From: Candidatus Moraniibacteriota bacterium
Lineage (GTDB): Bacteria; Patescibacteriota; Minisyncoccia; Moranbacterales; DUUL01
Length of the DNA stretch: 64,000 nt
Assembly (NCBI GenBank): GCA_027008775.1
Contig: JALVDV010000003.1
Location: 12,340 to 76,339 of the forward strand
Direction of reading: 5' to 3'
Shown piece after piece: positions 6,016 to 51,148 of the stretch. The notes under the pieces were generated by a model. The model did not search any database, had not been told where the DNA came from, and was given only the letters and a program-made list of their open reading frames with translations. The number at the start of each line of letters is the position of its first letter. The first letter of the stretch is position 1. A program made the position numbers and the translations under genes.

Positions 6016-6243
6016 TTTTTTACCCTCCTCTTTTTTGGTATATTTTTAATATTTTAATGTACTTTAATACTTTGAAGAACTTACAAATGGTATACCAGCA
6101 AAAACAATTTTAATCAAGAGTCACTTCTGCCGAACTCCGAATGAAAACATTGCTTGCCAATTTTCAGACTAAAACATTATTGATCAAAAACCAATCCGCG
6201 CCACAGAAATCAAGTCCACTAATACACACAATTAATTAACCAA

Positions 6244-6740
6244 ACTCTTACATCAGCAACTCTACTGCGTTTTGCACCGAATAACTCACTTCATATCAAC
6301 AACTTCATTTATTTCACATCAAAAACCCCTTTCCACATCAAGAACTCTGACTTCATCTTGAAAACCATACTTTATACCGGAAACCTTATATTCTAATCAA
6401 AAAATCTCGTGCCAGAAACCATGTTTTACGACAGAGACACCAAAAGGGTTTATACCAAAGACTACATTTATACCGGAAATTTACATCAGAAACTACGTCT
6501 TATAAGAAAGATTGTAACCCACATTAAAAATTACATTTACATCGAAAACCTCACTTTTACATCACCAATTCCGTTACTTTACACATTAGAATATTTGCTT
6601 CACGTCAAAAACTCTATTCTATGTCAGAAACTCTATATTTTTACGCCTGACACTCTGCATTTTACACCAGAAAAATTTTACACCAAAAATCACATTTCAC
6701 ACCAGCAGTCCCACCTCAAAAAGAATCAAAAACCACACCT
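6244..6740. repeat. array of about 25 degenerate 19-20-bp tandem repeats (consensus approx TTTTACAYCAGAAACTCTA)
   Basis: Read directly: units such as tttcacatcaaaaacccct / ttccacatcaagaactctgac / tttataccggaaaccttata / tttacatcgaaaacctcac / ttttacaccagaaaaatt recur head-to-tail; the period is not a multiple of 3. Confidence 0.7.
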
Positions 6741-7010
6741 ACTATCATATAAGGTTGTATGATAGTATTTCACAAATCCGTTTAAAAAAGCCAAAAATCA
6801 AAAGTCAAAAAGCCAAAAAGTCATAATCACTCTTATATAAGGTTGTATGATAGTATTTTGCAAATCCGTTCAAAAAACATCAAAAAACAAAAGAACAAAA
6901 AACCATAACCACTATCATATAAGGTTATATGATAGTGTTTCACAAATCCACTCAAAAAAATAAAAAATAAAAAAGCGCATCTACTATCATATAAGGTTGT
7001 ATGATAGTAC
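6741..7010. repeat. four tandem 72-90-bp units, each with the inverted repeat ACTATCATA-N8-TATGATAGT followed by TTTCACAAATCC and an A-rich linker
   Basis: Palindromes at 6741-6766, 6829-6854 (2 mismatches in left arm), 6911-6936 (1 mismatch), 6983-7008. Confidence 0.8.
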
Positions 7011-7225
7011 TTCATAAAAAACCAATTTATTCAGCTTGTTTGCGGTTTTTTGATCTATTTTACCTATTCCTATCCATTGACCGCGCTGCCTCAATCATAA
7101 TGTAGCTCGCAAATACAAGTAAAAAGTATTATCACTTTCTCTTTTAAGAACAAATTTCAAAAACAAAAATACACTCACCCATCATCATTCAAAATTAGAA
7201 AACAGGAAACAAAAACGATCTATTT

Positions 7226-7260
7226 CAAACAAAAAAACCCGATAACGCCAACATGTTATC
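7226..7260 (-). terminator. rho-independent terminator after the DUF167 gene
   Basis: Minus-strand GATAAC-N8-GTTATC hairpin followed by GGGTTTTTTTGTTTG. Confidence 0.55.
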
Positions 7261-7356
7261 AGATTAACCGGCGCAATTACACGATAAAGGCGAAGAAATA
7301 TTCATCAAGACAGTAATCGGGCGGTGTCTCACCAAAATCGGCAAGAAATACAACTC

Positions 7357-9119: not shown

Positions 9120-9808
9120 TTAATGAATTAAAACTTCTCTCACTTTGCCGACAAAAAAACTTTTCAATTTTTCTAAATCGATACTCTTACCAGCAATTTC
9201 TTTTCTCAACTTCGGATCTAAAATTTTTCCCTGATCCTGAAAGGCCTGCAAAACATAACGACGAGACCCGGATAACCAATCGGCTATCTCTTTAAATTCC
9301 TCTTCACTGTGCAAACCGGAAACTACCGTTGTCCTAAATTCATAATCGTCAGCCAAATCCCTAATCAGTTCAACGCTTTTTTTAATTTTTTCCAAGTTAG
9401 CTTCTACTCCGCAAACCCGGGCATAATTTTCCGGACTAGCCTTAATATCCATCGCCACATAATCCACCAATCTACTTTTCAACAACTTCCGCAACACTCC
9501 TGGTCGTGTCCCATTGGAATCCAATTTCACCGCAAAACCCAATCCCTTAACTTTTTTAATAAACTCAACCAAATTCGGTTGCAAAGTTGGCTCTCCACCG
9601 GTAATACAAATTCCATCCAACTTTCCTCTTCTCATTTCCAAAAATTCAAAAAATTCATCCATCCGTTTCTCAACTTGCTCATTACCGTGAACAGTGAAGT
9701 GTGAACTGTGAACCAATTCCGGGTTATGACAAAAAGGACAACGAAAGTTGCAACCGGGAGTAAATACGGTTGCCGCCACTTTGCCTGGATAATCTATCAA
9801 AGTCATCT
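9120..9808 (-). CDS. radical SAM glycyl-radical-enzyme activase (NrdG/PflA-like, anaerobic RNR activase type)
   Basis: MTLIDYPGKVAATVFTPGCNFRCPFCHNPELV is the CxxxCxxC radical SAM cluster motif of the NrdG-type family; start set at the internal Met after the ftsK stop; the longer ORF 9120..10052 overlaps ftsK. Confidence 0.8.
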
Positions 9809-9873
9809 TTTGCAAACCGGCTATCAACATAAAAACAAAAACTTTAAGACTAAAATATTTTCCAACTATCGCT

Positions 9874-12456
9874 TCAAAATTCTCTTTTGTCTCTTTCCGC
9901 CTGTATCTCCATATCATCTTCCGGACCGGAAACAACATCGGCCATCTGTTCCGCTTGCACCAGAACCTCTCGAGGCTTAGAGCCATTGGCCGGACCGACA
10001 ACACCATTTTCTTCCAGCATTTCCATAATTCTGGCAGCTCTGTTATAACCAATTCTCAGAGCTCTCTGAATAAAAGAAACTGAGGCTCTACCTGATTGCA
10101 CCACCGCCTCTTTGGCCTGTTCATACAAAACATCATCAGCCGAATTTTCTCCTTCCCGCACATCACCAGAAACAACTGTTTCTTCCAGCTTTTCTTCTAA
10201 GGAATTTTTCAAACTACCATCATGTCTGAAATTCAGTTTTTGGGCTTGCTTCTTTACAAATCTGATTAATTTATTTGTCTCTTGCTCCGAAACAAAAGGA
10301 CCCTGAATTCTCACCGGTTGCGGATAACCGGGACCAATGTACAACATATCCCCATTACCCAATAATTTTTCCGCTCCCGGCGCATCTAAAATTGTCCGAG
10401 AGTCAACATTGCCTCCCACCCGAAAAGCAATTCGTCCGGGAATATTATTTTTAATTGTTCCGGTAATCACGTTGGTATCAGGTCGCTGAGTGGAAAGAAC
10501 CAAGTGTATTCCCACTGCCCGAGCCATTTGAGAAAGACGGGTAATCAAACCTTCCACCTCCTTACCATGAGTGGACATCAAGTCTGCTAACTCATCAATC
10601 ACAATAACAATATAAGGCATTCTTTCCAAAGGCTCCTCGTTTGCTTCTCCCGTTTCTTGATTTACAACTTTTCTAGTCGCGCCTTTGCCAACCTTTTCAT
10701 TGTAAGAAACAATATTTCTGGAACCAACCTCTGCCAACTTCTTATAGCGCTCATCCATTTCAATGGTGGCCCATTTTAAAACATTTACCACTTTATCCAT
10801 ATCTGTTATTACATCAGTCAACAGATGCGGGATACCACCATAAGAAGACAGTTCCACTCTTTTTGGGTCAACCAAGATTAACTGCAAGTCATCGGGAGAA
10901 TTTTTAAAAATCAATGAAGATAGAATAGCATTTACACAAACACTTTTCCCCGTATTAGTGGAACCGGCTACCAACAAATGGGGCATTTTATCCAGAGGAG
11001 CAATAACATAATTCCCGTTGACATCCTCCCCCAGAGCCATTGACAAACCGGGAGAATTCAAAAATTCTTCCCGACCAAAAATGCTACCCAGTCGCACCAT
11101 AGTCGGCTCCTTGTTAGGAACCTCAATTCCAATCAAGGAAGTCCCGGGGATAGGCGCCTCAATTCTAATGGCATAAGCCTTTAGGGCCAAGGCCAGATTG
11201 TGTTGTAAACTAACTATTTTACTGAGCATTACACCCGCCGGCGGAATAAATTGGTATTGGGTAACCGTCGGACCGATATTGTAACCGCTGGGCTCAACCT
11301 TGATGCCAAAATCCTTCAATGTCCGTTGAATCAAAGCAATATTGACTTCCGTGTCTTTGCTCCTTTTCACTCTTTTCGTTTTGGCAAAAATACTCAAGGG
11401 CGGGCGTCGCCATTTTAGCCTCGGGCGTCTTTTTGGAACAGTTGATTTTTTTTGATTTTCAGTTTTTTTCTTATCTGGCAAAGTCACATTTCCCAACATT
11501 ATTTTCTCGTCAGCCCTTTCCTCCTCCAAACCTATACTATCAAAATTATCATCTGTCATTGTGCCTTTATCTTCCAAATCTTTTTCCATTTCATCATCTT
11601 CTTCCACCACCTCCCAAGATTTGATATTGTCATCAACTTCTCTCAACTTCGCTTCTCGTCTGGCCTGTTTACTAAAAAGCCTTTTCCACCAAGGAATATT
11701 TTTATCCTCATTCTCATCCTTTTTGAAATCATTTTGACCGACTTCCTCCCCAGCAAATTCACCGTCGTCAGTCTCATCACTGCTCTTGTTCCCATGCTCA
11801 AGATCACTCTCCAGACTTAATTGCCTGAACTCGTCACCATCGTTAAACGAAGCTTCTTCCCCGCCTTCCCCACTTTCCAAGTTATCCCCTGATCTTTTCT
11901 CCTCAGAAAAAGCGCTTCGCCAAAAATCCTTCCATTTTCCCAAAAAAGTTAAGACGGGAACATTAAAAGCCAACATAAAACCTATCAGAGCAAAAACAAA
12001 AAGAGAAACAACCGTAGCTATCCGGCCGATTAATTTTACTAAAGAAAAAGCCACCGCCAGTCCGACGTAACCTCCCCCCAATCCGATTTTAGCCAACTCT
12101 TTCATTGCCCCTTCTTCATAAAAAGCATCCAGCAAGCCTAGCAAAGAAACAAACAACAAAAAACCGCCCAGTAGAACCAAATTCCTACTGGCCCCTTTTA
12201 TTTTGCGAAAATAAACCGCCCCCCAAAAAATCAAGAGAAAAGGCAAAAAATATCGCCCCCAACCGAATAAAACGGTCAAAGCTTTATCCACCCACCGCCC
12301 TACTGCGCCGGCCTGTCCAAAAAGACTGAGTGAGAAGAATAAAGCAAAAACAAACAACAAAAGTGTTGCAATATGTTTTTTAACGTCCTGCCTTAAAACC
12401 GATTTTTCTTTTCCTTTTGCCTTTTTTCTTAGTTCCCCTTTTTTCTTCTTCATCAA
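9874..12456 (-). CDS. ftsK: DNA translocase FtsK/SpoIIIE
   Basis: N-terminal TM helices, acidic linker, C-terminal motor with LLVAGSTNTGKSVCVNAILSSL Walker A and the RecA-like fold. Confidence 0.95.
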   Translation of the reverse strand: MMKKKKGELRKKAKGKEKSVLRQDVKKHIATLLLFVFALFFSLSLFGQAGAVGRWVDKALTVLFGWGRYFLPFLLIFWGAVYFRKIKGASRNLVLLGGFLLFVSLLGLLDAFYEEGAMKELAKIGLGGGYVGLAVAFSLVKLIGRIATVVSLFVFALIGFMLAFNVPVLTFLGKWKDFWRSAFSEEKRSGDNLESGEGGEEASFNDGDEFRQLSLESDLEHGNKSSDETDDGEFAGEEVGQNDFKKDENEDKNIPWWKRLFSKQARREAKLREVDDNIKSWEVVEEDDEMEKDLEDKGTMTDDNFDSIGLEEERADEKIMLGNVTLPDKKKTENQKKSTVPKRRPRLKWRRPPLSIFAKTKRVKRSKDTEVNIALIQRTLKDFGIKVEPSGYNIGPTVTQYQFIPPAGVMLSKIVSLQHNLALALKAYAIRIEAPIPGTSLIGIEVPNKEPTMVRLGSIFGREEFLNSPGLSMALGEDVNGNYVIAPLDKMPHLLVAGSTNTGKSVCVNAILSSLIFKNSPDDLQLILVDPKRVELSSYGGIPHLLTDVITDMDKVVNVLKWATIEMDERYKKLAEVGSRNIVSYNEKVGKGATRKVVNQETGEANEEPLERMPYIVIVIDELADLMSTHGKEVEGLITRLSQMARAVGIHLVLSTQRPDTNVITGTIKNNIPGRIAFRVGGNVDSRTILDAPGAEKLLGNGDMLYIGPGYPQPVRIQGPFVSEQETNKLIRFVKKQAQKLNFRHDGSLKNSLEEKLEETVVSGDVREGENSADDVLYEQAKEAVVQSGRASVSFIQRALRIGYNRAARIMEMLEENGVVGPANGSKPREVLVQAEQMADVVSGPEDDMEIQAERDKREF

Positions 12457-13651: not shown

Positions 13652-14358
13652 TCACTGACTTAAAAACTTTTTCACAAATTTTTCCGCCTCAACCAAAGCA
13701 TCCGGTGTACCAACCGGTTGCCAATGAGAAGCCAGAACTACCTTAGTTTTTCTTTGGGGATACATTTTAGCCAAAGTCTGTGGTAAACCAAATTCTTTTT
13801 TTGAAATAGTCACCGGCGAAATATTAAAATAATCTTGACCTAAAACATAGGCCCCCGTGTTCAACAAAATTTCCTTTCTAGAAGAAACCTTTTCTCTAAC
13901 CGCCCGCAAATAACCTTTTTCATCCACCTCTATTACACCGGACTGAAAATTATTTTTGGTCTCAATAGCCAGAACGGCCTGTTTGTATTTCATCAATTTC
14001 TCCAAATCTTTCTGCAAATACAGATCGTCACCCATCAAAACCAAAAACCTTCCTTTCACTAAATCTTTCACCAGAGAAACGGCTCCGGCTGTCCCATTTA
14101 AATCTTTTTGCCAAACATAATATACCTTTCTGCCCTCAAAATAATTCCCAAAAAATTTTTTGATAATCTCTCCCTTGTAAGAGACCACCAAAAAAACTTC
14201 TTTCACTTCTTTCGGCAAAGAACGAAAGCTGTAAACTAATTTTGGTCGGCCAGCTATTTCTAGCATCGGCTTTGGAATTTCCTCGGTTAAACTGCCCATT
14301 CTCGTTCCCCGACCAGCCGCCAAAATAACTGCCTGTTTCACATTACTCTTTTCCATAA
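13652..14358 (-). CDS. sugar-phosphate nucleotidyltransferase (NTP_transferase family)
   Basis: KQAVILAAGRGTRMGSLTEEIPKPML...LMGDDLY is the canonical GlmU/RmlA-type nucleotidyltransferase N-terminus; start chosen at MEKSNV. Confidence 0.8.
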
Positions 14359-14570: not shown

Positions 14571-14614
14571 CATCAAGCCAAAAATCATCTGGCAAATCTA
14601 TCCATACTTCCCAA

Positions 14615-14642
14615 TACTACCATATTACGTAATATGGTAGTA
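14615..14642. promoter_or_regulatory. 28-bp perfect palindrome TACTACCATATTACGTAATATGGTAGTA (putative operator, copy A)
   Basis: Self-reverse-complementary; identical to the copy at 46397-46424 and one mismatch from the copy at 45858-45885; lies between divergent genes. Confidence 0.6.
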
Positions 14643-14900
14643 TAAAAACAAATTTGAAGTGTAGAGCGGGTCTGGAGTGTAAAACAAATTTGAACACCCC
14701 ACCTCTGTAAAAAAGAAATAAATATCAAATTGAATAAATCAAATATATAAAATTAAAAAGCCATTTCATTTGATTCCTGTCAAATCTCTCATTTAACTTT
14801 CTTATTCCACGCCATCTTGACCCCCGATTCACACACTCGCCAAACACGAAACTCACAAAACACTATTCCCCCAAAACAAACCGACAAACAGATAAAATCA

Positions 14901-42678: not shown

Positions 42679-43236
42679 TCATTTTCCACTAATTTTGGCC
42701 ATCATTTCATTAATCTGCCGATAAGTCTCCTCTAACTCACCACCATTGTCAATCACAAAATCGGCGTATTGTTTCAACAAAGGCACATCTTTGTCCGCCG
42801 GTCGCTGATGATCTTTTTTAAATTCTGCAAAAGTCTTGGAATTGTCATCTGTTTTTTCTCCCCGCTTAATCAATCTCTCATAAGATACCTCCAATGGCGC
42901 TTCCACAAACACAAAAATAAAATCATCTATTTTATTTTTAAAATAATCCAATTCCGCCTTTTTTCTAATACCATCAAAAACAACCAATTCCGCTTCTTTT
43001 TTTTGAATGTCTTGCTCCAAAACTCTGGACAAAATATCCTTACCGAAAGCATTACGCAAAGCCTCAGCTAATCCGGCTAAATTTTGCCGCTCATTAGGCA
43101 AATAAAGCCTGTCTAAAACATCCTTTAAAATATTAGTATAAGCCACCGCTTCCGCCCCGTATTTCTCAATCAAATATCTTGTGATTGTTCCTTTGCCGGC
43201 GCCAATATTTCCGGCGATTCCAATTACTTTTTTCAT
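42679..43236 (-). CDS. P-loop nucleotide kinase, phage-T4-type dNMP-kinase-like (paralogue 1)
   Basis: GIAGNIGAGKGT Walker A; C-terminal ADFVIDNGGELEETYRQI resembles the T4 gp1 C-terminus (ITNDGSLEEL); paralogous to 49758..50351. Confidence 0.55.
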   Translation of the reverse strand: MKKVIGIAGNIGAGKGTITRYLIEKYGAEAVAYTNILKDVLDRLYLPNERQNLAGLAEALRNAFGKDILSRVLEQDIQKKEAELVVFDGIRKKAELDYFKNKIDDFIFVFVEAPLEVSYERLIKRGEKTDDNSKTFAEFKKDHQRPADKDVPLLKQYADFVIDNGGELEETYRQINEMMAKISGK

Positions 43237-43592: not shown

Positions 43593-44261
43593 CTATTCCT
43601 CACCGGCAATCTCCTTTTCCAATCGCTCTAAAAATTCTTTAAAAAACGCTAGCCTTTTTCTGGCCATTTCCCTGGCTTTCTCAGTATACAATCTATCAAC
43701 CACAAATTTCAATTTTGTTTCAAACTCTATTTGCGGACTGTGTTTTGTTTTATCCTTGATTCTTCCCTTGAGCTTCCCTCCCAAATTTTCCTCAGCATAC
43801 TTTTCAATGTCAACGTCACTGTAAATTTTGGCCTTATTTTTCCCCACCCAAACAAAACTTCTCGCCACTCCTATCGCCCCCAGGGCATCCAGTTTGTCCG
43901 CATCAAATAAAATTTGCGCTTCCCTGCTCTTTGCTCTGCAACCTGTCCTGTACCGATGAGAAACTATACATTCTTGAACATGCCTTACCTGCTTTTCTGA
44001 AAAATCCAATTTCCGCAAAATGGGTCCCGCCATTTTCGCTCCCAAGACCGCATGATCGGTTTTTCCGGAAGAATCTTTATCCTCTTTAACTCTGGCAATA
44101 TCGTGCAGTAAAGCCGCCGCCCGCAACACGTCTTTATCAATATCGTCGCCTTTCGCCAATCGCAAAGCCAAATTATAAACTCGCAACACGTGCTCCATAT
44201 CGTGCGCTGAACAGGAAAGCTCTTTGGCCACAATTTCTTTGATTTTTTGAAACCTAGACAT
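43593..44261 (-). CDS. HD-domain phosphohydrolase
   Basis: H...HD motif (LLHDIARVKE) and downstream His/Asp residues. Confidence 0.8.
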   Translation of the reverse strand: MSRFQKIKEIVAKELSCSAHDMEHVLRVYNLALRLAKGDDIDKDVLRAAALLHDIARVKEDKDSSGKTDHAVLGAKMAGPILRKLDFSEKQVRHVQECIVSHRYRTGCRAKSREAQILFDADKLDALGAIGVARSFVWVGKNKAKIYSDVDIEKYAEENLGGKLKGRIKDKTKHSPQIEFETKLKFVVDRLYTEKAREMARKRLAFFKEFLERLEKEIAGEE

Positions 44262-45237
44262 TCAAATTCTTTTTAATTATCGTATCCAAAAAATCGCTCA
44301 ATTTCCACCCGGCCGCTCGCAACTCTTGCGGATATAAAGATGTCTCCGTCATACCGGGCAAAGTATTTACTTCCAGCACGTATAAACCCTTTTCCTCGTT
44401 AAAGATAAAATCTGTCCGGGAATAATCAGCCAAACCCAATACCTTGTGAACTCGCGCAGCTGTCCGTTGAATTTCCTTGGCCAAGTTTTCATCCTCAATC
44501 ACCGCCGGACAAATCTCCTCCACCGCATTTTCATACTTGGCTTCAAAGTCAAAAAATTCCTTTTGAGGAATAATCTCCACAATCGGCAACGGCTCAATTT
44601 GACCGGCTTTTTGTTCCAAAACACCACAAGTGAATTCCTTTCCCTCAATATACTCTTCCACCAAAGCCTCATTGCCAATCTCAAAAATCTCTCGCAAAGC
44701 TTGAGCCAATTCCTCAGCCGAGTCGCAAATAAAAACACCAAAGGAAGATCCGGACTCACTAGCTTTGGCCACCACTTTTTTCCCCTGAAATTTTTCCACA
44801 ATATTCACCGCTTCCTCATTCAAATTTCCAATCTTAGACCTTTCCAAAGACAAAAACGGTGGCGTTTTAATACCGCTTTTTTCAAACACCCATTTGCTGG
44901 CAATCTTAGAAAAAGATAATTGCGAAGATTTTGCCGAAGAGCCAACAAAATTAATCCTCTCTTTTTCTAAGACACTTTGCACCTGACCATCCTCTCCGTA
45001 AGAACCATGCAAAACCGAAAAAACTATGTCAACCCTGCCCTTTAAATCCCGCGGAATAATTTCTTTTCCTTCCAAAAACCACCGACCATCCTTGGCAACA
45101 AAAATGTCCACAATTTCATACTTACCCGAGTCCAAATTATTCTTGATTGTCTTGCCGGAATTCAAAGAAACATCATGTTCCAAAGAAACACCTCCACTCA
45201 ACACCCCCACTCTTATTTTCTTTGATTCATTTGCCAT
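44254..45237 (-). CDS. ddl: D-alanine--D-alanine ligase
   Basis: KIRVGVLSGGVSLEHDVSLNSGK, ATP-grasp fold, C-terminal LEVNTLPGMTETSLYP. Confidence 0.9.
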   Translation of the reverse strand: MANESKKIRVGVLSGGVSLEHDVSLNSGKTIKNNLDSGKYEIVDIFVAKDGRWFLEGKEIIPRDLKGRVDIVFSVLHGSYGEDGQVQSVLEKERINFVGSSAKSSQLSFSKIASKWVFEKSGIKTPPFLSLERSKIGNLNEEAVNIVEKFQGKKVVAKASESGSSFGVFICDSAEELAQALREIFEIGNEALVEEYIEGKEFTCGVLEQKAGQIEPLPIVEIIPQKEFFDFEAKYENAVEEICPAVIEDENLAKEIQRTAARVHKVLGLADYSRTDFIFNEEKGLYVLEVNTLPGMTETSLYPQELRAAGWKLSDFLDTIIKKNLNV

Positions 45238-45292
45238 ACTTCTGAATTTATCGCAAAATTAAAACTCTCAACGCCTCTTCTAAAGAAAACAA

Positions 45293-45622
45293 TTATCGAT
45301 CATCTCCATCTCCATTAATAACCCCTCTTTCTAAACGACTGTATAATTTTTCAATATTTTTTTGTGCTATTTCATCCAAATTTAAGCCAAGTTCCGTAGC
45401 TAACTGAGAAAGATACCACAGCACATCACCCAATTCTTTCTGCACACTCTCCCTAAAACCATCGTCAATAATTCCATCTTTATCTCTAATTAGTTTTTTA
45501 ATTTTTTCCGCTACCTCACCCGCCTCTCCAACTAAACCCAGAGTCGGATAAATAAAATTATTGTCTTTATTCGGATACAGGGCTGTCTTCCTTGACTTTT
45601 CTTGATACTCTTGAAAATTCAT
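45293..45622 (-). CDS. MazG-like nucleoside triphosphate pyrophosphohydrolase
   Basis: LGLVGEAGEVAEKIKK...ELGDVLWYLSQLA, the EExxE/D metal-binding helix pair; start at MNFQEY (the ORF extends upstream to 45769). Confidence 0.7.
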   Translation of the reverse strand: MNFQEYQEKSRKTALYPNKDNNFIYPTLGLVGEAGEVAEKIKKLIRDKDGIIDDGFRESVQKELGDVLWYLSQLATELGLNLDEIAQKNIEKLYSRLERGVINGDGDDR

Positions 45623-45857
45623 AAACAAATTTTTAATTCTTAATCTATAAAACACAATAGAAGGCATAACAATAAGAAGAATATCAGGCAAACCAACATT
45701 TTGTATCAAGCTTCTTTCAAAACTCCAAATCTGGTAGAAACAATAATTTTCCTCAATAATTCTCCTCAATATCAGCTTTCACACAAACACAAAATCCCAC
45801 CAAACTAAACCTCCACATCAACATCACCAAACATTTTCCCAACTCCCAACCATCACT

Positions 45858-45885
45858 TACTACCATATTACGTAATATAGTAGTA
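45858..45885. promoter_or_regulatory. 28-bp palindrome TACTACCATATTACGTAATATAGTAGTA (copy B, one mismatch)
   Basis: Between the TrpR-like gene (downstream side) and the MazG-like gene (upstream side). Confidence 0.6.
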
Positions 45886-45945
45886 AAAACAACGGCAGGG
45901 AAAACAACGACAGTGGCGCTGGTCAATTATCACAATAACAACATA

Positions 45946-46383
45946 CTACAACGATAATAAATCTTTCAAAAATCTGTATTGAGGATAACGATCTAACAAA
46001 CCTTCATTGTATCTGACACTGCTTCCTTTTCGGCCACCTTTCTCCTTCGGCCATCTTTTTATCATTACTTTTTTATAAGCTTCATCTCTTTCGTGTAACC
46101 ATCTATCCACTTTTGAAATAGTTCCGAATCCAACACCAATTTTCTGTCTGATATCATCAAAAGTATCTCCATCAATGATACACTTGGCTATTTGCAGTCT
46201 TCTCGCCAACATAAGTGATTCGCTGGGAGTCAGGAGACCGACAAATAAATCAATTATTTCCTGTTTGGTTCTCAAATTGGAAATTAAACCAAAGAAATCA
46301 CCGATAATTTTACGTCTTTTTTCTATGGGTATATTTTTTGGTTTTACCTTAGCCATATATTTTTGATACTTTTTATGTTCCAA
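45946..46383 (-). CDS. TrpR-like DNA-binding protein, YerC/YecD family
   Basis: LLTPSESLMLARRLQIAKCIIDGDTFDDIRQKIGVGFGTISKVDRWL parallels B. subtilis YerC SLAQRLQVAKMIKQGYTYATIEQESGASTATISRVKRSL (helix-turn-helix of the Trp repressor fold). Confidence 0.8.
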   Translation of the reverse strand: MEHKKYQKYMAKVKPKNIPIEKRRKIIGDFFGLISNLRTKQEIIDLFVGLLTPSESLMLARRLQIAKCIIDGDTFDDIRQKIGVGFGTISKVDRWLHERDEAYKKVMIKRWPKEKGGRKGSSVRYNEGLLDRYPQYRFLKDLLSL

Positions 46384-46396
46384 ATTACTCCTATAA

Positions 46397-46424
46397 TACT
46401 ACCATATTACGTAATATGGTAGTA
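46397..46424. promoter_or_regulatory. 28-bp perfect palindrome TACTACCATATTACGTAATATGGTAGTA (copy C) 14 bp upstream of the TrpR-like start codon
   Basis: Overlaps a TATAAT hexamer (46392-46397); position fits an autoregulatory operator. Confidence 0.65.
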
Positions 46425-46460
46425 TTTAGATTTTGATTACATGTAAATATACTGGATGGA

Positions 46461-46535
46461 AATTTCTGAAAACTTTTGAAAATTTCTAAAAACTTTTGAG
46501 AACTTTTGAAAACTTTTTAAAACTTTTTAAATAAT
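46461..46535. repeat. ~13-bp tandem repeat (GAAAACTTTTGAA)n
   Basis: tctgaaaacttttgaaaatttctaaaaacttttgagaacttttgaaaactttttaaaactttttaaa read directly. Confidence 0.5.
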
Positions 46536-46601
46536 TTCAAATAGTAATCCATAGCAATAACAGAAAATGGCAATCAGCGACATCACGATACGCACAGCGC
46601 C

Positions 46602-47288
46602 CTATTTTATCACTTCTCCAACTTTTTCCCAAACCATCTCCGCAATTTTTTCCCGACTGAGCAACTTCCCGTTGCGAGCACATCTAATATCAATCCAATT
46701 ATTTTGCTCTTTCACTAAATTCAAAGCGCTTCGTTTGGCATTTAATAAATGTTGCGGGTCACTTTCATGAGCATCTTTTTTCCCATCCAAATAGGCCTTT
46801 CGTTTTTTGGCATCTCCATTTTCCAACAATTGCAGACTCAATTTCAAAGGCACATTCAAAAAAACAATGGCATCCGGTTGCGGTATTTTAAAAATATCAA
46901 ACTCCATCACTTGCAACCATTTCAAAAATTCTCGCCTCTTTCGAGCGTCTTGAATTTTTCCTCCTTGATGAACTTGATTGGCGCTGGCATAACGGTCAGC
47001 AATAACCACAAAGCCATCTTCCAGCCATTTTTTAATTCTCTTACTGGATTCAAAACGATCAGCAGCGTACAAAACGGAAGCAATTTTCGGGTCCAATCCA
47101 ACAAAATCACCATGCTTTCCCGCCAAACACTCTCCGATAAACTTTCCAAAAAAATTATTATCATACTGTGGAAAGTCAATTGTTCTCACTCTAAATCCCT
47201 CTCGTCGCAATCGCTTGATCAACAAATCCGTTTGTGTTTTCTTGCCACTCCCATCTATTCCTTCTATCACAATTAATTTACCTTGCAT
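46602..47288 (-). CDS. tmk: thymidylate kinase
   Basis: GKLIVIEGIDGSGKKTQ P-loop, DRY motif (VIADRYASANQV), LID region; a basic N-terminal extension to 47354 is possible. Confidence 0.85.
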   Translation of the reverse strand: MQGKLIVIEGIDGSGKKTQTDLLIKRLRREGFRVRTIDFPQYDNNFFGKFIGECLAGKHGDFVGLDPKIASVLYAADRFESSKRIKKWLEDGFVVIADRYASANQVHQGGKIQDARKRREFLKWLQVMEFDIFKIPQPDAIVFLNVPLKLSLQLLENGDAKKRKAYLDGKKDAHESDPQHLLNAKRSALNLVKEQNNWIDIRCARNGKLLSREKIAEMVWEKVGEVIK

Positions 47289-47388
47289 CCTAGTATCTCT
47301 CTTCATCCTCCTCTGCGATTTCAATCTATTTTTCATTCGTCTTTTTTCTTTCATTTTTTACCCAAAACCGTGAAATTTTAAATTCAAC

Positions 47389-48735
47389 TTACTTTTTTTC
47401 CACAATATCCTGCTCTCCCCTCCGAACATCAAATCTATTTGACTCGTCGTCAATGTGAAGAACTAGACCATATTTACCAAACAGTTTTTTTAAACTGGTG
47501 ACCATTTTTAACATCTGTTCCACTAAAGTCGGATGCACAAACCTGGTGGAACGAAGCTCCACCAAATAAGTTAACGCCTTCAAATCTCCCACTACTCGAC
47601 AAGGAACTTGATAACCCATCGGGATGTAATATTGTTTAACAAATTTATCGGCCTTCAATTTTCCAATCAATTTCTTCTGTTCTCCTAAAAATTTCTCTGC
47701 CTCCTTTTTTAATTCTTCCGGCATCTGTTCCAAATACCATTTATGAAAACCATGTCGCATCGTCAATAAAGGCATTCGTTGAGCCACTGCTCGATGTCTT
47801 TGTAAATCCCGAAAAGAACCAAAGTCAAGCAAGAAATCATAACCGACCACTCCGGCAGTGGCAACGGAATTTGGCAATTCCGTTTTGGCCGGTCGTCTTT
47901 TTAGCTCCTGCTTGAATTCCGCCAAAACATCTTTATCCACCCCGTTAAATAGCAATTTAAACCCCTTCAATTTACTATTCTCAAAATAATATTTTTTCTG
48001 CATCAAATATTCATTATATTTCTCCGTCTTTTCATATCTTTTATGCCCAAAAGACTGGGGATACATTTTTCGCAACGCTTTTTCGGTTTTCTCAGCAATA
48101 TCCCGTACCTCCGCCAAAGGATGATGTCTCAACAACATTAACTCATCGGCAAATTGCCTAAAATTCATTCGCCATGCCACATTAGTCGTTGCTCCCGCCG
48201 GCAACCAACAACGAGTACTGTCAAAAGCTCGAGCGATAATCGCCTTTTCATAAATTTTTTCATTTTCACCTTCTTGACGAGGATGTTTTCTTCTAAGATG
48301 CTCTCGCATCGGCTCTTGAAGATGTAAATAAAAATCCCGCCAATTTTCCAATATCCTCTCGCCTGTCTTGGTCTTGGTGGGATTTAAAAAAATTTGTTTG
48401 GAAAAATCAACGTAACGAGTGGAGGCTTCCTGTCCGGAATACAGTCGCCAATCTTGAATGGCCTTTGCCGCCAACATTGAAACTCCTTCCACAAAAACCG
48501 TCGCGCTTCCACAATCACCAATTGATTTATGCCCGTAACCGACATAAAATTGCTCCATAAAATTCTCCGCCCCTTTTTCTTTTAAAACTTTTAAGTGATG
48601 TTTTATACCTCCGGTGGAACGAGAATGAAGGGCTTGCAACATTGCTTCCGCCTGCCCATCAATTTCCGCCCCATTATTCAAAACCAAAACAAAGCTCCCA
48701 TTTTGTTTTAATTTTTCCACACTATGTCCTTTCAT
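47389..48735 (-). CDS. thyX: flavin-dependent thymidylate synthase-like protein (long, divergent ThyX)
   Basis: GHKSIGDCGSATVFVEGVS...RLYSGQEASTRYV parallels the ThyX core (HxS..EH..FTF..GVSR...Q.SQRY); a second region has QRHRAVAQRMP with RHR but no conserved Ser; 448 aa, about twice a typical ThyX. Confidence 0.7.
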   Translation of the reverse strand: MKGHSVEKLKQNGSFVLVLNNGAEIDGQAEAMLQALHSRSTGGIKHHLKVLKEKGAENFMEQFYVGYGHKSIGDCGSATVFVEGVSMLAAKAIQDWRLYSGQEASTRYVDFSKQIFLNPTKTKTGERILENWRDFYLHLQEPMREHLRRKHPRQEGENEKIYEKAIIARAFDSTRCWLPAGATTNVAWRMNFRQFADELMLLRHHPLAEVRDIAEKTEKALRKMYPQSFGHKRYEKTEKYNEYLMQKKYYFENSKLKGFKLLFNGVDKDVLAEFKQELKRRPAKTELPNSVATAGVVGYDFLLDFGSFRDLQRHRAVAQRMPLLTMRHGFHKWYLEQMPEELKKEAEKFLGEQKKLIGKLKADKFVKQYYIPMGYQVPCRVVGDLKALTYLVELRSTRFVHPTLVEQMLKMVTSLKKLFGKYGLVLHIDDESNRFDVRRGEQDIVEKK

Positions 48736-48765
48736 TGTTTTATTTTTTAGTGCTTTTTATTTTGT

Positions 48766-48797
48766 AACAAAAAACTAGCTTTATAAACAAAAAGCTA
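48766..48797 (-). terminator. rho-independent terminator after dcd
   Basis: Minus strand TAGCTTT-N8-AAAGCTA then GTTTTTTGTT. Confidence 0.55.
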
Positions 48798-48908
48798 TCC
48801 CCCGGATAACTTTCATTCTACAACGTCCTTTCATAATCACACTCTAACACATCAATTTAAATTTTCCAAACACAAAGCTCTCCATTGTCATAAACAAAAA
48901 TTAAAAAA

Positions 48909-49469
48909 CTAAAAATTTTTATGCATACTCGACGGTTTCACCGTCTTATCACCATAGTACTTACTATTCAAACTTTTATCGCCATACGGACGCAAACAAG
49001 GCGATGACAATTTTTCAAAAGCCATCTGGGCAATAGGCATTTTATAATATAACTTAATTGGTAAAGAACCGGCATTAAAAAGTTCCAAAGTCATTTTTAA
49101 AGAATTGCCGGGATCCAAAAAGCCGGCCGTTGTATGCACAATCAACCCCAATCGCCCTAGAGAACTTTTACCCTCTAGACGAGCCACAAATTTCTCTGAC
49201 ACTCCGGTTTCTTCATAAACAAGAGCCAGAGCAAAGCTTCCCGGATGCAAAATAAATGATTTTTTATTATTGATGATTATTTTGGTCATCAAACCCTCGG
49301 CCGGCTTTTTAACGTCAATTACATGATTGTCAACCATATTAAAAACCATAAACTCTTTATCCAAACGCAAATCAACACTAGCCGGTTGAACCATTTTTTT
49401 ATTAAAGGGTTTAATAATAATTTCCCCCTTCCTCACCTCTTTGATGATATCTCTGTCTGAAAGTATCAT
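48909..49469 (-). CDS. dcd: dCTP deaminase
   Basis: MILSDRDI start, dUTPase-like fold with PASVDLRL and GSFALALVYE motifs. Confidence 0.9.
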   Translation of the reverse strand: MILSDRDIIKEVRKGEIIIKPFNKKMVQPASVDLRLDKEFMVFNMVDNHVIDVKKPAEGLMTKIIINNKKSFILHPGSFALALVYEETGVSEKFVARLEGKSSLGRLGLIVHTTAGFLDPGNSLKMTLELFNAGSLPIKLYYKMPIAQMAFEKLSSPCLRPYGDKSLNSKYYGDKTVKPSSMHKNF

Positions 49470-49757
49470 TTGTTTATTTTTATTTCATTTTAACCCTTTA
49501 TCAACATTCTATAAAATTATTTGCTTCCTCTTTGAAAGTAATAAACTGATTTTAAATTTTAAGCTTTAAATTTTAAATGAGTTTTAAATGATTGATTTTT
49601 AATGTTGAATGTATGATAACAATCTTTATCAAAAAAACTAAGGCTCAAAATCAAACATTTACTTAAAACTTAAAATTAACTCCACAGACTCTTGATCAGC
49701 GAATACCCACTCAGTCCATAGATTACTTCACAGACTTTAGGGACTTTATAAATTCCC

Positions 49758-50351
49758 CTAACACTCCCCCTCCAGCGTGTCTAACTCCTGCTTCTTTTTC
49801 AAAATTATTTTCATCACATCGTCCACTTGCCACAACAATTCATCCATTGAACCGTTGTTGGTGATTTTAAAGTCGGCCTTGGCGCCTATTAAAGGAATAT
49901 CTTTCTCCGTTTCCGCCGTTGCCTCAAATTTTTTAAATTCTTCCAAAGTTTGCTTGTCATCGGATTTTTCCCCGCGACCAACCACTCTTTTCCATCTCAC
50001 TTCTTGATCAGCCGTCACATAAATAACATAATTATTCTTGAAGGAACGAATAAATTCCAAATCTTTCATCATCCTCATTCCATTCACGCACATTATTCCA
50101 TCGTGTTGTTCCACATAACGTCGCACTCCTTGGTGTAAAACATCTTCCCCAAAACGCTCCTTAAAAACCGAATACAGCCAAGACTGATCCTTTTTGGACG
50201 ACTTAGCAAAAAACAAATCCAAAGTTTTTTTCAAAGGCTGGCTGAAACGCAAAAGTTGCACATCATATCGCCTTTTCAAATAATGCGCCACCGTATCCTT
50301 ACCGCTTCCCGTTTCTCCCACCAGACCGATAACAATTTTTGACATTTTCAA
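49758..50351 (-). CDS. P-loop nucleotide kinase, phage-T4-type dNMP-kinase-like (paralogue 2)
   Basis: IGLVGETGSGKDTVAHYL vs T4 gp1 LSGVKRSGKDTTADFI; C-terminal ADFKITNNGSMDELLWQV vs GDLVITNDGSLEELFSKI. Confidence 0.6.
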   Translation of the reverse strand: MKMSKIVIGLVGETGSGKDTVAHYLKRRYDVQLLRFSQPLKKTLDLFFAKSSKKDQSWLYSVFKERFGEDVLHQGVRRYVEQHDGIMCVNGMRMMKDLEFIRSFKNNYVIYVTADQEVRWKRVVGRGEKSDDKQTLEEFKKFEATAETEKDIPLIGAKADFKITNNGSMDELLWQVDDVMKIILKKKQELDTLEGEC

Positions 50352-50641
50352 AAAATTATTTAGTTAACCAAAACAACAACATTATATAGTCAATAAAAAA
50401 ATAGTCAACAGCTCTCATCACTTCCTACATATCATCATCACCATCTCCAATTGCCATCCCAACCTGCCCACCATCCAAAACAAACAAAATTCAAGCAAAA
50501 AACTTCCGTCAACTGCCGGCGTAAGCAACAAAACAAAAACTTTATTTAATTCAATTTAATGTTATAATAAAAACAAGGTAGAAACTTCTTTTAAAGGACC
50601 GAGACAAACAACAAAAAATAATCACCTTAACCAAAGACATT

Positions 50642-51148
50642 ATGAACAACGAATCTAGTTTTAAACAGTATCTCGGGGGAATTTCCGTCAGTCTGGCAGT
50701 TCTATTGCTTCTTATCGGTGTCAGCAGTCACCAAGAGATATTCACCAATACTCCGGCCGAAATAGCCCAAAGTTTTCAAAAAATAAGCACGGCGCTCATC
50801 CATCGCAATCAATCCCCTCAAGAAACAAACAAGGCTCAGCAAAACATTTATCCCTTCAATGTTCAGCGTCCGGGCGATCTCATTGAAACGGAAAACAACA
50901 ATGGTTCAATAGTTTTAAAACATTACCGCGCCCTTTATGTGCCCGCTCTTGTCAATGACTTTGAGGCTCTACCCAAGTTAGAAGTGGAGGTTTTAAACAA
51001 AGGTAAAAAAGACTGGATTGAAATTCCTATCTACAAAACCGACCGTCAAAATGGTTTGGTGTACTTTCTCTTAAAAACAGAGGAAAACGGAAATAGCGAA
51101 TATGCTCAGGTTTTCACCGGCCGAGCCAGAGTACAGTTGATTAGATAA
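50642..51148 (+). CDS. hypothetical secreted/membrane-anchored protein
   Basis: 168 aa, N-terminal hydrophobic segment, no motif recognised. Confidence 0.5.
   Translation: MNNESSFKQYLGGISVSLAVLLLLIGVSSHQEIFTNTPAEIAQSFQKISTALIHRNQSPQETNKAQQNIYPFNVQRPGDLIETENNNGSIVLKHYRALYVPALVNDFEALPKLEVEVLNKGKKDWIEIPIYKTDRQNGLVYFLLKTEENGNSEYAQVFTGRARVQLIR

Follow-up and report, generated by a model that had tools for sequence, protein, structure and literature searches.

A probable Moranbacteria deoxynucleotide-supply island with a tandem ThyX-like protein and a TrpR-like regulator bracketed by palindromes

In a 64,000-nucleotide (nt) stretch of a Candidatus Moraniibacteriota genome (contig JALVDV010000003.1, assembly GCA_027008775.1; the whole stretch is called the window here), a cluster of genes predicted to act in deoxypyrimidine nucleotide metabolism was analyzed at positions 45293-50351. 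All six consecutive minus-strand genes that an earlier note had named from the letters are present and match the families given there (MazG, TrpR-like, tmk, ThyX, dcd and P-loop kinase), and the TrpR-like gene indeed lies inside the cluster with palindromes on both sides of it. Related genes extend past this interval to an HD phosphohydrolase gene and a second kinase gene. Functional statements throughout are inferences from sequence, fold and context. The features, from high to low coordinates, are:

49758-50351, minus strand: kinase A, P-loop (d)NMP-kinase-like, an open reading frame (ORF) of 197 amino acids (aa); AAA_18, 34.7 bits; first gene of the island.
48909-49469, minus strand: dcd, dCTP deaminase; TIGR02274, 185.5 bits.
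47389-48735, minus strand: long ThyX, 448 aa; PF02511, 71 bits, residues 40-227 only.
48031-48735, minus strand: N-terminal ThyX domain of long ThyX, residues 1-235; PF02511.
47389-48030, minus strand: C-terminal ThyX-fold domain of long ThyX, residues 236-448; AlphaFold model.
46602-47354, minus strand: tmk, dTMP kinase; PF02223, 69.3 bits.
46395-46426: palindrome O1, 32 bp, perfect, AATACTACCATATTACGTAATATGGTAGTATT; 39-70 nt upstream of the regulator ATG.
45946-46356, minus strand: TrpR/YerC-like helix-turn-helix (HTH) regulator, 136 aa; PF01371, 54.3 bits; TIGR02531, 42.5 bits.
45857-45886: palindrome O2, 30 bp, one mismatch to O1; 60-89 nt past the regulator stop.
45293-45622, minus strand: small MazG-type NTP pyrophosphohydrolase, 109 aa; PF03819, 43.3 bits.
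43593-44261, minus strand: HD-domain phosphohydrolase, downstream of MazG-ddl and overlapping ddl by 8 nt; PF01966, 60 bits; in L029 and L060, HD homologues come straight after TrpR-like genes.
42679-43236, minus strand: kinase B, a paralogue of kinase A; AAA_18/AAA_17; PRK08356, 79 bits.

Kinase A probably starts at the ATG at 50345, and the internal ATG at 47288 may be an alternative start of tmk. For the regulator, the ATG at 46356 is the likely start (the ORF edge is at 46383), because homologues measure 134-145 aa. The MazG ORF as listed, which reaches 45769, is over-extended, and the real gene is the one given above.

We consider it probable that this locus represents, in Moranbacteria, a conserved island for deoxynucleotide supply, which consists of several units and carries a fused ThyX and a palindrome-binding regulator. 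The island gene order recurs in loci of relatives (designated by L numbers), namely L002, L015, L016, L098, L100 and L101, and tmk comes after thyX in L002, L015, L098, L099 and L101. The arrangements found were:

L002/L003 (Moranbacteria GW2011): kinases, dCMP deaminase, kinase, long ThyX, tmk, MazG, GatB; three kinases in all.
L015: dCMP deaminase, kinase, long ThyX, tmk, TrpR-like, Dut, GatB.
L016: ThyA, DHFR, tmk, TrpR-like, MazG, GatB.
L101 (ThyX 83% identical): kinase A, dcd, long ThyX, a nucleoside deoxyribosyltransferase-like gene, tmk.
L100 (ThyX 94% identical): the deaminase slot holds dCMP deaminase and a kinase.
L099: NrdR, NrdD and NrdG directly ahead of long ThyX and tmk.
L014: TrpR-MazG-ddl-HD-kinase, the same order as in the window.

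Comparison of these loci revealed replacement of genes slot by slot, dcd by dCMP deaminase, long ThyX by ThyA with DHFR, and MazG by Dut. DHFR is required by ThyA and not by ThyX, and the presence of ThyA and DHFR in the slot of long ThyX therefore argues that long ThyX is a thymidylate synthase. In the same way, the Dut found in the MazG slot of L015 (TIGR00576, 134.6 bits vs. a cutoff of 102.55) argues that MazG fills the role of a dUTPase. In the homologue P0346 (625 aa) a dCMP deaminase domain is fused to long ThyX, which is a Rosetta-stone link between the deaminase and thymidylate synthase steps. The slot replacements support, by genomic context, the route from dCTP to dUMP, dTMP and dTDP that had been proposed earlier. 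Along this route Dcd would deaminate dCTP and, if bifunctional, would yield dUMP directly; otherwise it would yield dUTP, which the small MazG would hydrolyse to dUMP and pyrophosphate. Long ThyX would then methylate dUMP to dTMP, and Tmk would turn dTMP into dTDP, while kinases A and B, as UPF0200/gp1-like (d)NMP kinases, would probably act on other (deoxy)nucleoside monophosphates. Synthesis of dTMP is counted among the minimal functions that Patescibacteria keep, and thyA is exchanged among them (PMC12455944).

The enzymes of this route match their families to different degrees. Dcd passes the equivalog level (TIGR02274 cutoff 92.8 bits; PF22769, 144 bits) and is 75% identical to the enzyme at the same position in L101. 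Its best solved match is the bifunctional dCTP deaminase-dUTPase of Mycobacterium tuberculosis (2qxx, 151 bits), as compared with 96 bits for the monofunctional Escherichia coli enzyme (1xs1) and 85 bits for the bifunctional enzyme of Methanocaldococcus jannaschii (1ogh). The earlier suggestion of a bifunctional Dcd fits the first of these scores, the last being the lowest of the three, and a bifunctional, dUMP-forming Dcd is plausible. Compared with the known dCTP-deaminase routes (E. coli Dcd and Dut; the bifunctional Dcd-Dut of M. tuberculosis and M. jannaschii), the likeness lies in a Dcd above the equivalog cutoff that is nearest to the M. tuberculosis enzyme; the differences are that the window has a MazG-type enzyme in the slot and no trimeric Dut, and that close relatives have dCMP deaminase. 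Tmk shows the P-loop GIDGSGKKT and the DRY motif (ADRYASA) in its translation. MazG belongs to its family (PF03819 cutoff 22 bits), has integron iMazG (2q73) as its nearest solved structure and is 72-78% identical to its homologues in L002 and L004. Its family assignment had been given before together with a house-cleaning role; the family holds, and the gene is probably better read as occupying a dUTPase slot in the pathway, so that MazG may be the island's dUTPase rather than only a house-cleaner. A tblastn search of the 64-kb window for dut, dCMP deaminase, ThyA, DHFR, NrdD, NrdR and SHMT found none of them, the only related gene being an NrdG-like radical-SAM gene at 9120-10052. This activase gene, whose product is 58% identical to the NrdG-like protein of L099, adjoins FtsK (9874-12456), and the window has no NrdD.

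Several further observations were made in the islands of relatives. A nucleoside 2-deoxyribosyltransferase-like gene (PF05014) lies between long ThyX and tmk in L100 (4147-4584) and L101 (8466-8882) and is absent from the window. In L098, a 26-aa stretch resembling the N-terminus of Dut (10922-10999) between tmk and MazG may be the remnant of a displaced dut. Upstream of long ThyX and tmk in L099 (460-6922), NrdR is followed by a split NrdD with a GIY-YIG ORF between its pieces, a possible intron or intein-type insertion, and by NrdG.

The cluster had been described as compact, which is not what the spacing indicates. The intergenic gaps from kinase A to MazG are 288, 173, 34, 245 and 323 nt, and three further elements were detected in or beside the island:

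50381-50408, minus strand: promoter-like TTGACT-16-TATAAT upstream of kinase A; 11 of 12 consensus positions, found by consensus scan only.
48790-48818, minus strand: intrinsic-terminator-like hairpin with T-run, AAAGTTATCCGGGGGATAGCTTTTTGTTTA, between dcd and thyX; found by terminator scan.
46460-46545: tandem 10-nt repeat TGAAAACTTT, 6.5 copies, with phased A/T tracts, between the tmk stop and O1; TRF score 88-91.

The hairpin at 48790-48818 is kept upstream of thyX in L100, L098 and L101, whichever gene precedes, and its consensus has 11 pairs, one of them compensatory. We read it as an intrinsic terminator, which may simply end transcription or may attenuate thyX. Because of the gaps and the conserved terminator, the genes were assigned to separate transcription units, likely kinA, dcd, thyX-tmk, the regulator, mazG-ddl-HD and kinase B; the locus is a gene island of several transcription units and not one compact operon. 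The Rfam scan of the whole window at gathering thresholds gave tRNAs only, and a scan of 45200-50800 at E <= 1 gave nothing, so this region is without a known riboswitch or leader. About 45 nt ahead of the hairpin there is an extended -10-like box, TGTGnTAAAAT. A 17-codon ORF spanning the dcd-thyX terminator was considered as a leader peptide and rejected, as it is absent from L100, L098 and L101. The spacer between kinA and dcd (49470-49757) is unusually long (288 nt vs. 66 nt in L101) and rich in A and T; it contains repeats of 7 and 11 nt as well as an imperfect inverted repeat of 31 nt. The TGAAAACTTT tract is possibly bent DNA, and was treated as local since it is absent upstream of homologous regulators in relatives.

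The regulator matches PF01371 well above its cutoff of 27 bits and TIGR02531 (YerC/YecD) at the border (cutoff 42.2), with 3frw (E = 4e-10), 3kor and 3g1c as related PDB entries. Alignment showed that regulators of the candidate phyla radiation (CPR) have a C-terminal motif in common, LLDRYPQ(H/Y)RFLKxLLGL. O1 and O2 bracket the regulator gene, and one further copy was found in the window (in the shuffle test for palindrome copies, zero matches were expected in 100 shuffles):

14612-14643: palindrome O3, core identical, in the divergent spacer between a sugar-1-phosphate nucleotidyltransferase gene (13652-14353, minus strand) and a gene of the metallo-beta-lactamase (MBL) fold (14977, plus strand).

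One palindrome also stands on each side of the regulator gene in L014, L015 and L016, with the symmetric substitutions CCACAT...ATGTGG in L015. A scan of metagenome contigs gave 80 loci with relatives of the regulator, and 57 distinct ones with at least 200 nt on both sides were eligible. A matched palindrome pair (common 10-mer) flanks the regulator gene in 37 of these 57 loci, whatever the neighbours (median position of the centre, 71.5 nt ahead of the start codon and 53.5 nt past the match end; in the rest of these loci such palindromes number 0.79 per kb as background). The paired copies agree within each locus and differ between regulator lineages, and together these results link the palindrome strongly to the regulator. 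A second palindrome family, (C)ACTATCATATAAGGTT(G/A)TATGATAGT(G), was detected at 6740-6767, 6907-6940 and 6982-7009, within a stretch of about 1.3 kb (6016-7356) that has no convincing ORF; it resembles the operators flanking other TrpR-like lineages, and no TrpR-like gene is adjacent.

As far as sequence goes, the arrangement is most economically read as that of a repressor acting as a dimer, with one operator for autoregulation and another at the 3' end of its gene. The TrpR/YerC-like protein most likely would bind the 28-32 bp palindromes as a dimer; O1 would give autorepression, and O2, at the 3' end of the regulator gene and ahead of MazG-ddl-HD, could repress or roadblock that unit or form a loop with O1. 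Further copies such as O3 would extend the regulon to unrelated genes.

YerC of Bacillus subtilis is the histidine repressor HisR, and TrpR-family repressors use palindromic operators of about 20 bp (PMC9413887). The regulator resembles E. coli TrpR and YerC/HisR of Firmicutes in its PF01371/TIGR02531 match, in having YerC/HisR-type structures as the nearest ones and in its associated palindromic sites. However, it is longer (136 aa vs. less than 100 aa) and has the extra conserved C-terminal motif, its palindromes measure 24-40 bp and form a matched pair bracketing the regulator's own gene, and its neighbours are nucleotide, envelope-glycan and miscellaneous genes instead of amino-acid biosynthesis genes; trp and his genes are absent from the surroundings of both the regulator and its palindromes. 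Bacteria usually regulate dNTP supply through NrdR, likewise a small repressor, whose palindromic boxes are close to genes of deoxynucleotide metabolism, and L099 has NrdR-NrdD-NrdG before long ThyX, but the regulator here has the TrpR fold and is not a Zn-ribbon/ATP-cone protein. To our knowledge, the window palindrome does not match the NrdR box. A literature search for TrpR-like regulators of CPR bacteria returned nothing relevant, and a regulator gene bracketed by its own palindromic sites looks undescribed.

The full-length AlphaFold model of long ThyX, built from 72 diverse homologues (pLDDT 93.5, pTM 0.91), matches chains of the ThyX/FDTS family only, each PDB chain covering about half of it (TM 0.35 by query, 0.62 by target). 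All of these PDB matches are of at most 250 residues, and among them there is no solved structure with a two-domain ThyX architecture. When the C half (236-448) was modelled alone (pLDDT 93.3), the model hit nothing outside the ThyX/FDTS family, with 154 ThyX chains matched at E <= 1e-3 (190-210 columns, TM 0.5-0.6), and the order of secondary-structure elements in the full-length model is repeated between the halves. At the sequence level, the profile of the C half found no ThyX chain in the PDB, and hhalign gave a weak local match between the N and C halves (E = 0.018) and E = 0.0035 between the C half and M. tuberculosis ThyX. By its modelled fold, long ThyX is a tandem ThyX-ThyX fusion, the duplication being read from fold and not from sequence.

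The canonical motif is shared out between the two domains. The N half and M. tuberculosis ThyX (64-231 in the profile) align position by position, and the N half keeps H69, S86, S100, S105, R107, Y108, R175 (R172 in M. tuberculosis) and R193, while R95-H96-R97 of M. tuberculosis is D95-W96-R97 in the window and D-x-P in the family consensus, so that the stretch reads D95-W96-R97-L-Y-S100-G-Q-E-A-S105-T-R107-Y108. Invariant residues of the C half are S307, R309, D310 and R313-H314-R315; its motif reads R313-H314-R315-A-V-A-Q-R-M-P-L-L-T, without the S..SxRY continuation (A318, L323, T325). Across the 72 diverse homologues, RHRxxSxxxxSxR is intact in neither domain and is split, the N half having S..SxRY and the C half RHR. 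In canonical ThyX, each FAD/dUMP site is formed by motif residues that come from different subunits, as in the structures from Thermotoga maritima and M. tuberculosis. Given this construction and the split motif, a homodimer of long ThyX would resemble the canonical tetramer in its build, and probably no more than two of its composite active sites would be complete.

Compared with canonical homotetrameric ThyX/FDTS (T. maritima TM0449, M. tuberculosis ThyX; PF02511), both halves have the fold in common, H69, S105, R107, Y108 and R172 of the M. tuberculosis enzyme align with H69, S105, R107, Y108 and R175 of long ThyX, and the genomic role beside tmk and a dC deaminase is the same; the difference is that a single 448-aa chain holds two diverged domains sharing out the motif. 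More than 4,660 homologues of long ThyX were found, the best 120 being 69-94% identical, and the representative library holds 481 clusters at E <= 1e-30, nearly all of 430-480 aa. Named members come from Moranbacteria, Wolfebacteria, Falkowbacteria, Parcubacteria and Minisyncoccia and nearly all belong to CPR; three records from metagenome-assembled genomes are labelled Gammaproteobacteria or Flavobacterium, for which mis-binning is suspected. A search of the literature library for tandem or fused ThyX found nothing relevant, and the fused two-half ThyX looks undescribed.

Kinase A always opens the island and is 83-88% identical at the same position in L098, L100 and L101. It had been called a T4-gp1-like dNMP kinase, a name that does not fit well. 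The match to DNMK (PF21448) reaches 28.0 bits vs. a cutoff of 27.1 and covers the P-loop only (model positions 3-51 of 232), and T4 gp1 itself (1dek) was matched at E = 1.4e-3 in a C-terminal stretch (residues 97-183). The nearest solved protein is the AdkA-like UPF0200 protein SSO1041 of Sulfolobus (3lw7/3h0k, E = 2e-7), and NCBIfam PRK08356 gave 63 bits (cutoff 189). Thus kinase A is like T4 gp1 in being a P-loop kinase of similar size with weak similarity at both ends, and the archaeal UPF0200/AdkA-like kinases (SSO1041, PRK08356) match it better over the full length; unlike either group, it passes no curated family cutoff over its full length and has 2-4 paralogues per island. From sequence, "T4-type" is a distant resemblance and not membership. 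Kinase B is 30% identical to kinase A by BLASTP and has orthologues within the L002 and L098 islands.

Several points weigh against the reading of the locus as a Moranbacteria deoxynucleotide-supply island with a fused ThyX and a palindrome-binding regulator. On the enzyme side, long ThyX does not reach the equivalog level (TIGR02170, 45.3 bits vs. a cutoff of 87.9), Tmk also scores under its cutoff (TIGR00041, 74.5 vs. 83.25 bits), the specificity of MazG is not readable from sequence, its nearest solved relative being an integron MazG, and Dut occupies the MazG slot in a single lineage (L015). Neither ndk nor a catalytic subunit of ribonucleotide reductase is encoded within the 64-kb window, and the unit is therefore not self-contained. 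On the side of the regulator, none of kinA, dcd, thyX and tmk has a palindrome ahead of it, in the window the distance between O2 and the MazG start is 235 nt, and TrpR-like homologues at 52% identity or less adjoin genes for WecG, a GT4 glycosyltransferase, an alpha/beta-hydrolase or GltX.

One alternative is that the regulator and its two palindromes form an autonomous, self-regulating and possibly mobile cassette, whose place in the dTTP island is incidental. In its favor, the paired arrangement is kept whatever the neighbours, and islands without the regulator gene have a solitary palindrome nearby (after MazG in L004, after GatB in L002). Exact copies of the window palindrome also occur in varied places of other Moraniibacteriota genomes, one of them inside a GT4 gene or at its edge (L006) and another directly after a tRNA CCA end (L009). 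However, no transposase, recombinase or target-site duplication was seen, the order tmk-TrpR-MazG/dut is stable from 66% to 94% identity, and several solitary copies lie 12-27 nt before start codons and look regulatory. We regard such a cassette as unlikely.

Another alternative, which the earlier note had favored, is that the six genes are one compact unit set by the TrpR-like repressor and that the palindrome regulon is essentially a dTTP-supply regulon. The regulator does lie between tmk and MazG/dut in the window, L014, L015/L020, L016/L021 and L018 (66-94% identity), although only in these close relatives. In L015 and L016 the downstream palindrome, equivalent to O2, stands 24-27 nt before dut/MazG, a position suiting repression of that gene, and in L013 (123-2343) a palindrome follows SHMT and is followed 12 nt on by an RmlA-like glucose-1-phosphate thymidylyltransferase gene. 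SHMT is the source of methylene-folate for ThyX, and the RmlA-like thymidylyltransferase uses dTTP. Against this alternative stand the four genes without an upstream palindrome, the conserved terminator that parts dcd from thyX, and the islands without a regulator gene (L002, L004, L098, L100 and L101). Other copies are found between MazG and GatB and beside NUDIX, LysE-type transporter, MBL and tRNA genes. Distant family members keep paired palindromes in non-nucleotide contexts. Since the paired palindromes occur family-wide in any genomic context, they give no evidence that the dTTP genes are the regulon. A compact dTTP-supply regulon is improbable; the palindromes bracket only the regulator, and with the terminator splitting the cluster the description as a self-contained, regulated unit was not borne out. 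At most, the regulon idea would hold in one lineage for the unit on the MazG/dut side.

It was also considered whether the palindromes, instead of being protein operators, work in RNA as hairpins, with a 5' and a 3' stem-loop that would terminate the regulator mRNA or make it more stable. The stems are perfect over 12-16 bp, the downstream copies lie just past the stop codon, and mismatches in the downstream copies are G.U-compatible in the sense strand in seven cases vs. one C.A. On the other hand, nine further downstream mismatches are not wobble-compatible, the upstream copies show no bias (4:3), most copies have no following T-run, and in divergent regions solitary copies are found in either orientation. 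A dimeric HTH protein fits the exact two-fold symmetry of the DNA, which differs by regulator lineage, and the hairpin explanation is very doubtful. Finally, that the long ThyX-like protein is some other flavin-dependent nucleotide C5-modifying enzyme, as PolB is for UMP, would fit the score under the thyX equivalog cutoff, the canonical motif incomplete in both domains and PolB among the fold matches, but is highly improbable in view of ThyA and DHFR filling the same slot in L016, the constant position beside tmk and a dC deaminase, the dCMP-deaminase fusion P0346 and an identity as high across Patescibacteria (at least 70%) as for an essential enzyme.

Apart from these genes, a DNA polymerase III alpha gene with intein and LAGLIDADG domains was observed at 16806-17350 of L002, a GW2011 Moranbacteria relative.

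The module read here as a deoxynucleotide-supply island is in itself ordinary, with enzymes of known kinds and with dTMP synthesis already known as retained in Patescibacteria. Nevertheless, the series of in-place gene displacements is unusually clean context evidence for function, and it points to a MazG-type enzyme replacing Dut. The double-domain ThyX with its split motif, which is typical of the phylum, bears on how ThyX active sites are built, on the design of ThyX inhibitors and on annotation rules, as the protein fails the equivalog cutoff. Tentatively, and with the odds against it, the observations on both proteins might be joined: a TrpR/YerC-like subfamily of Patescibacteria would form self-contained repressor units, with two looping or insulating operators, and through scattered copies of its site would act as a global regulator, while ThyX, with half as many active sites as usual, would be a pseudo-heterodimer whose fusion is obligate. 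If this is true, the Moranbacteria regulator would couple dUTPase/MazG-ddl-HD, and possibly dTDP-sugar or envelope genes, to a possibly nucleotide effector, and would be one of few global regulators in these minimal genomes. A regulator flanked by its own putative operators is a testable handle on transcription control in organisms where regulators are few and genetics is almost absent.

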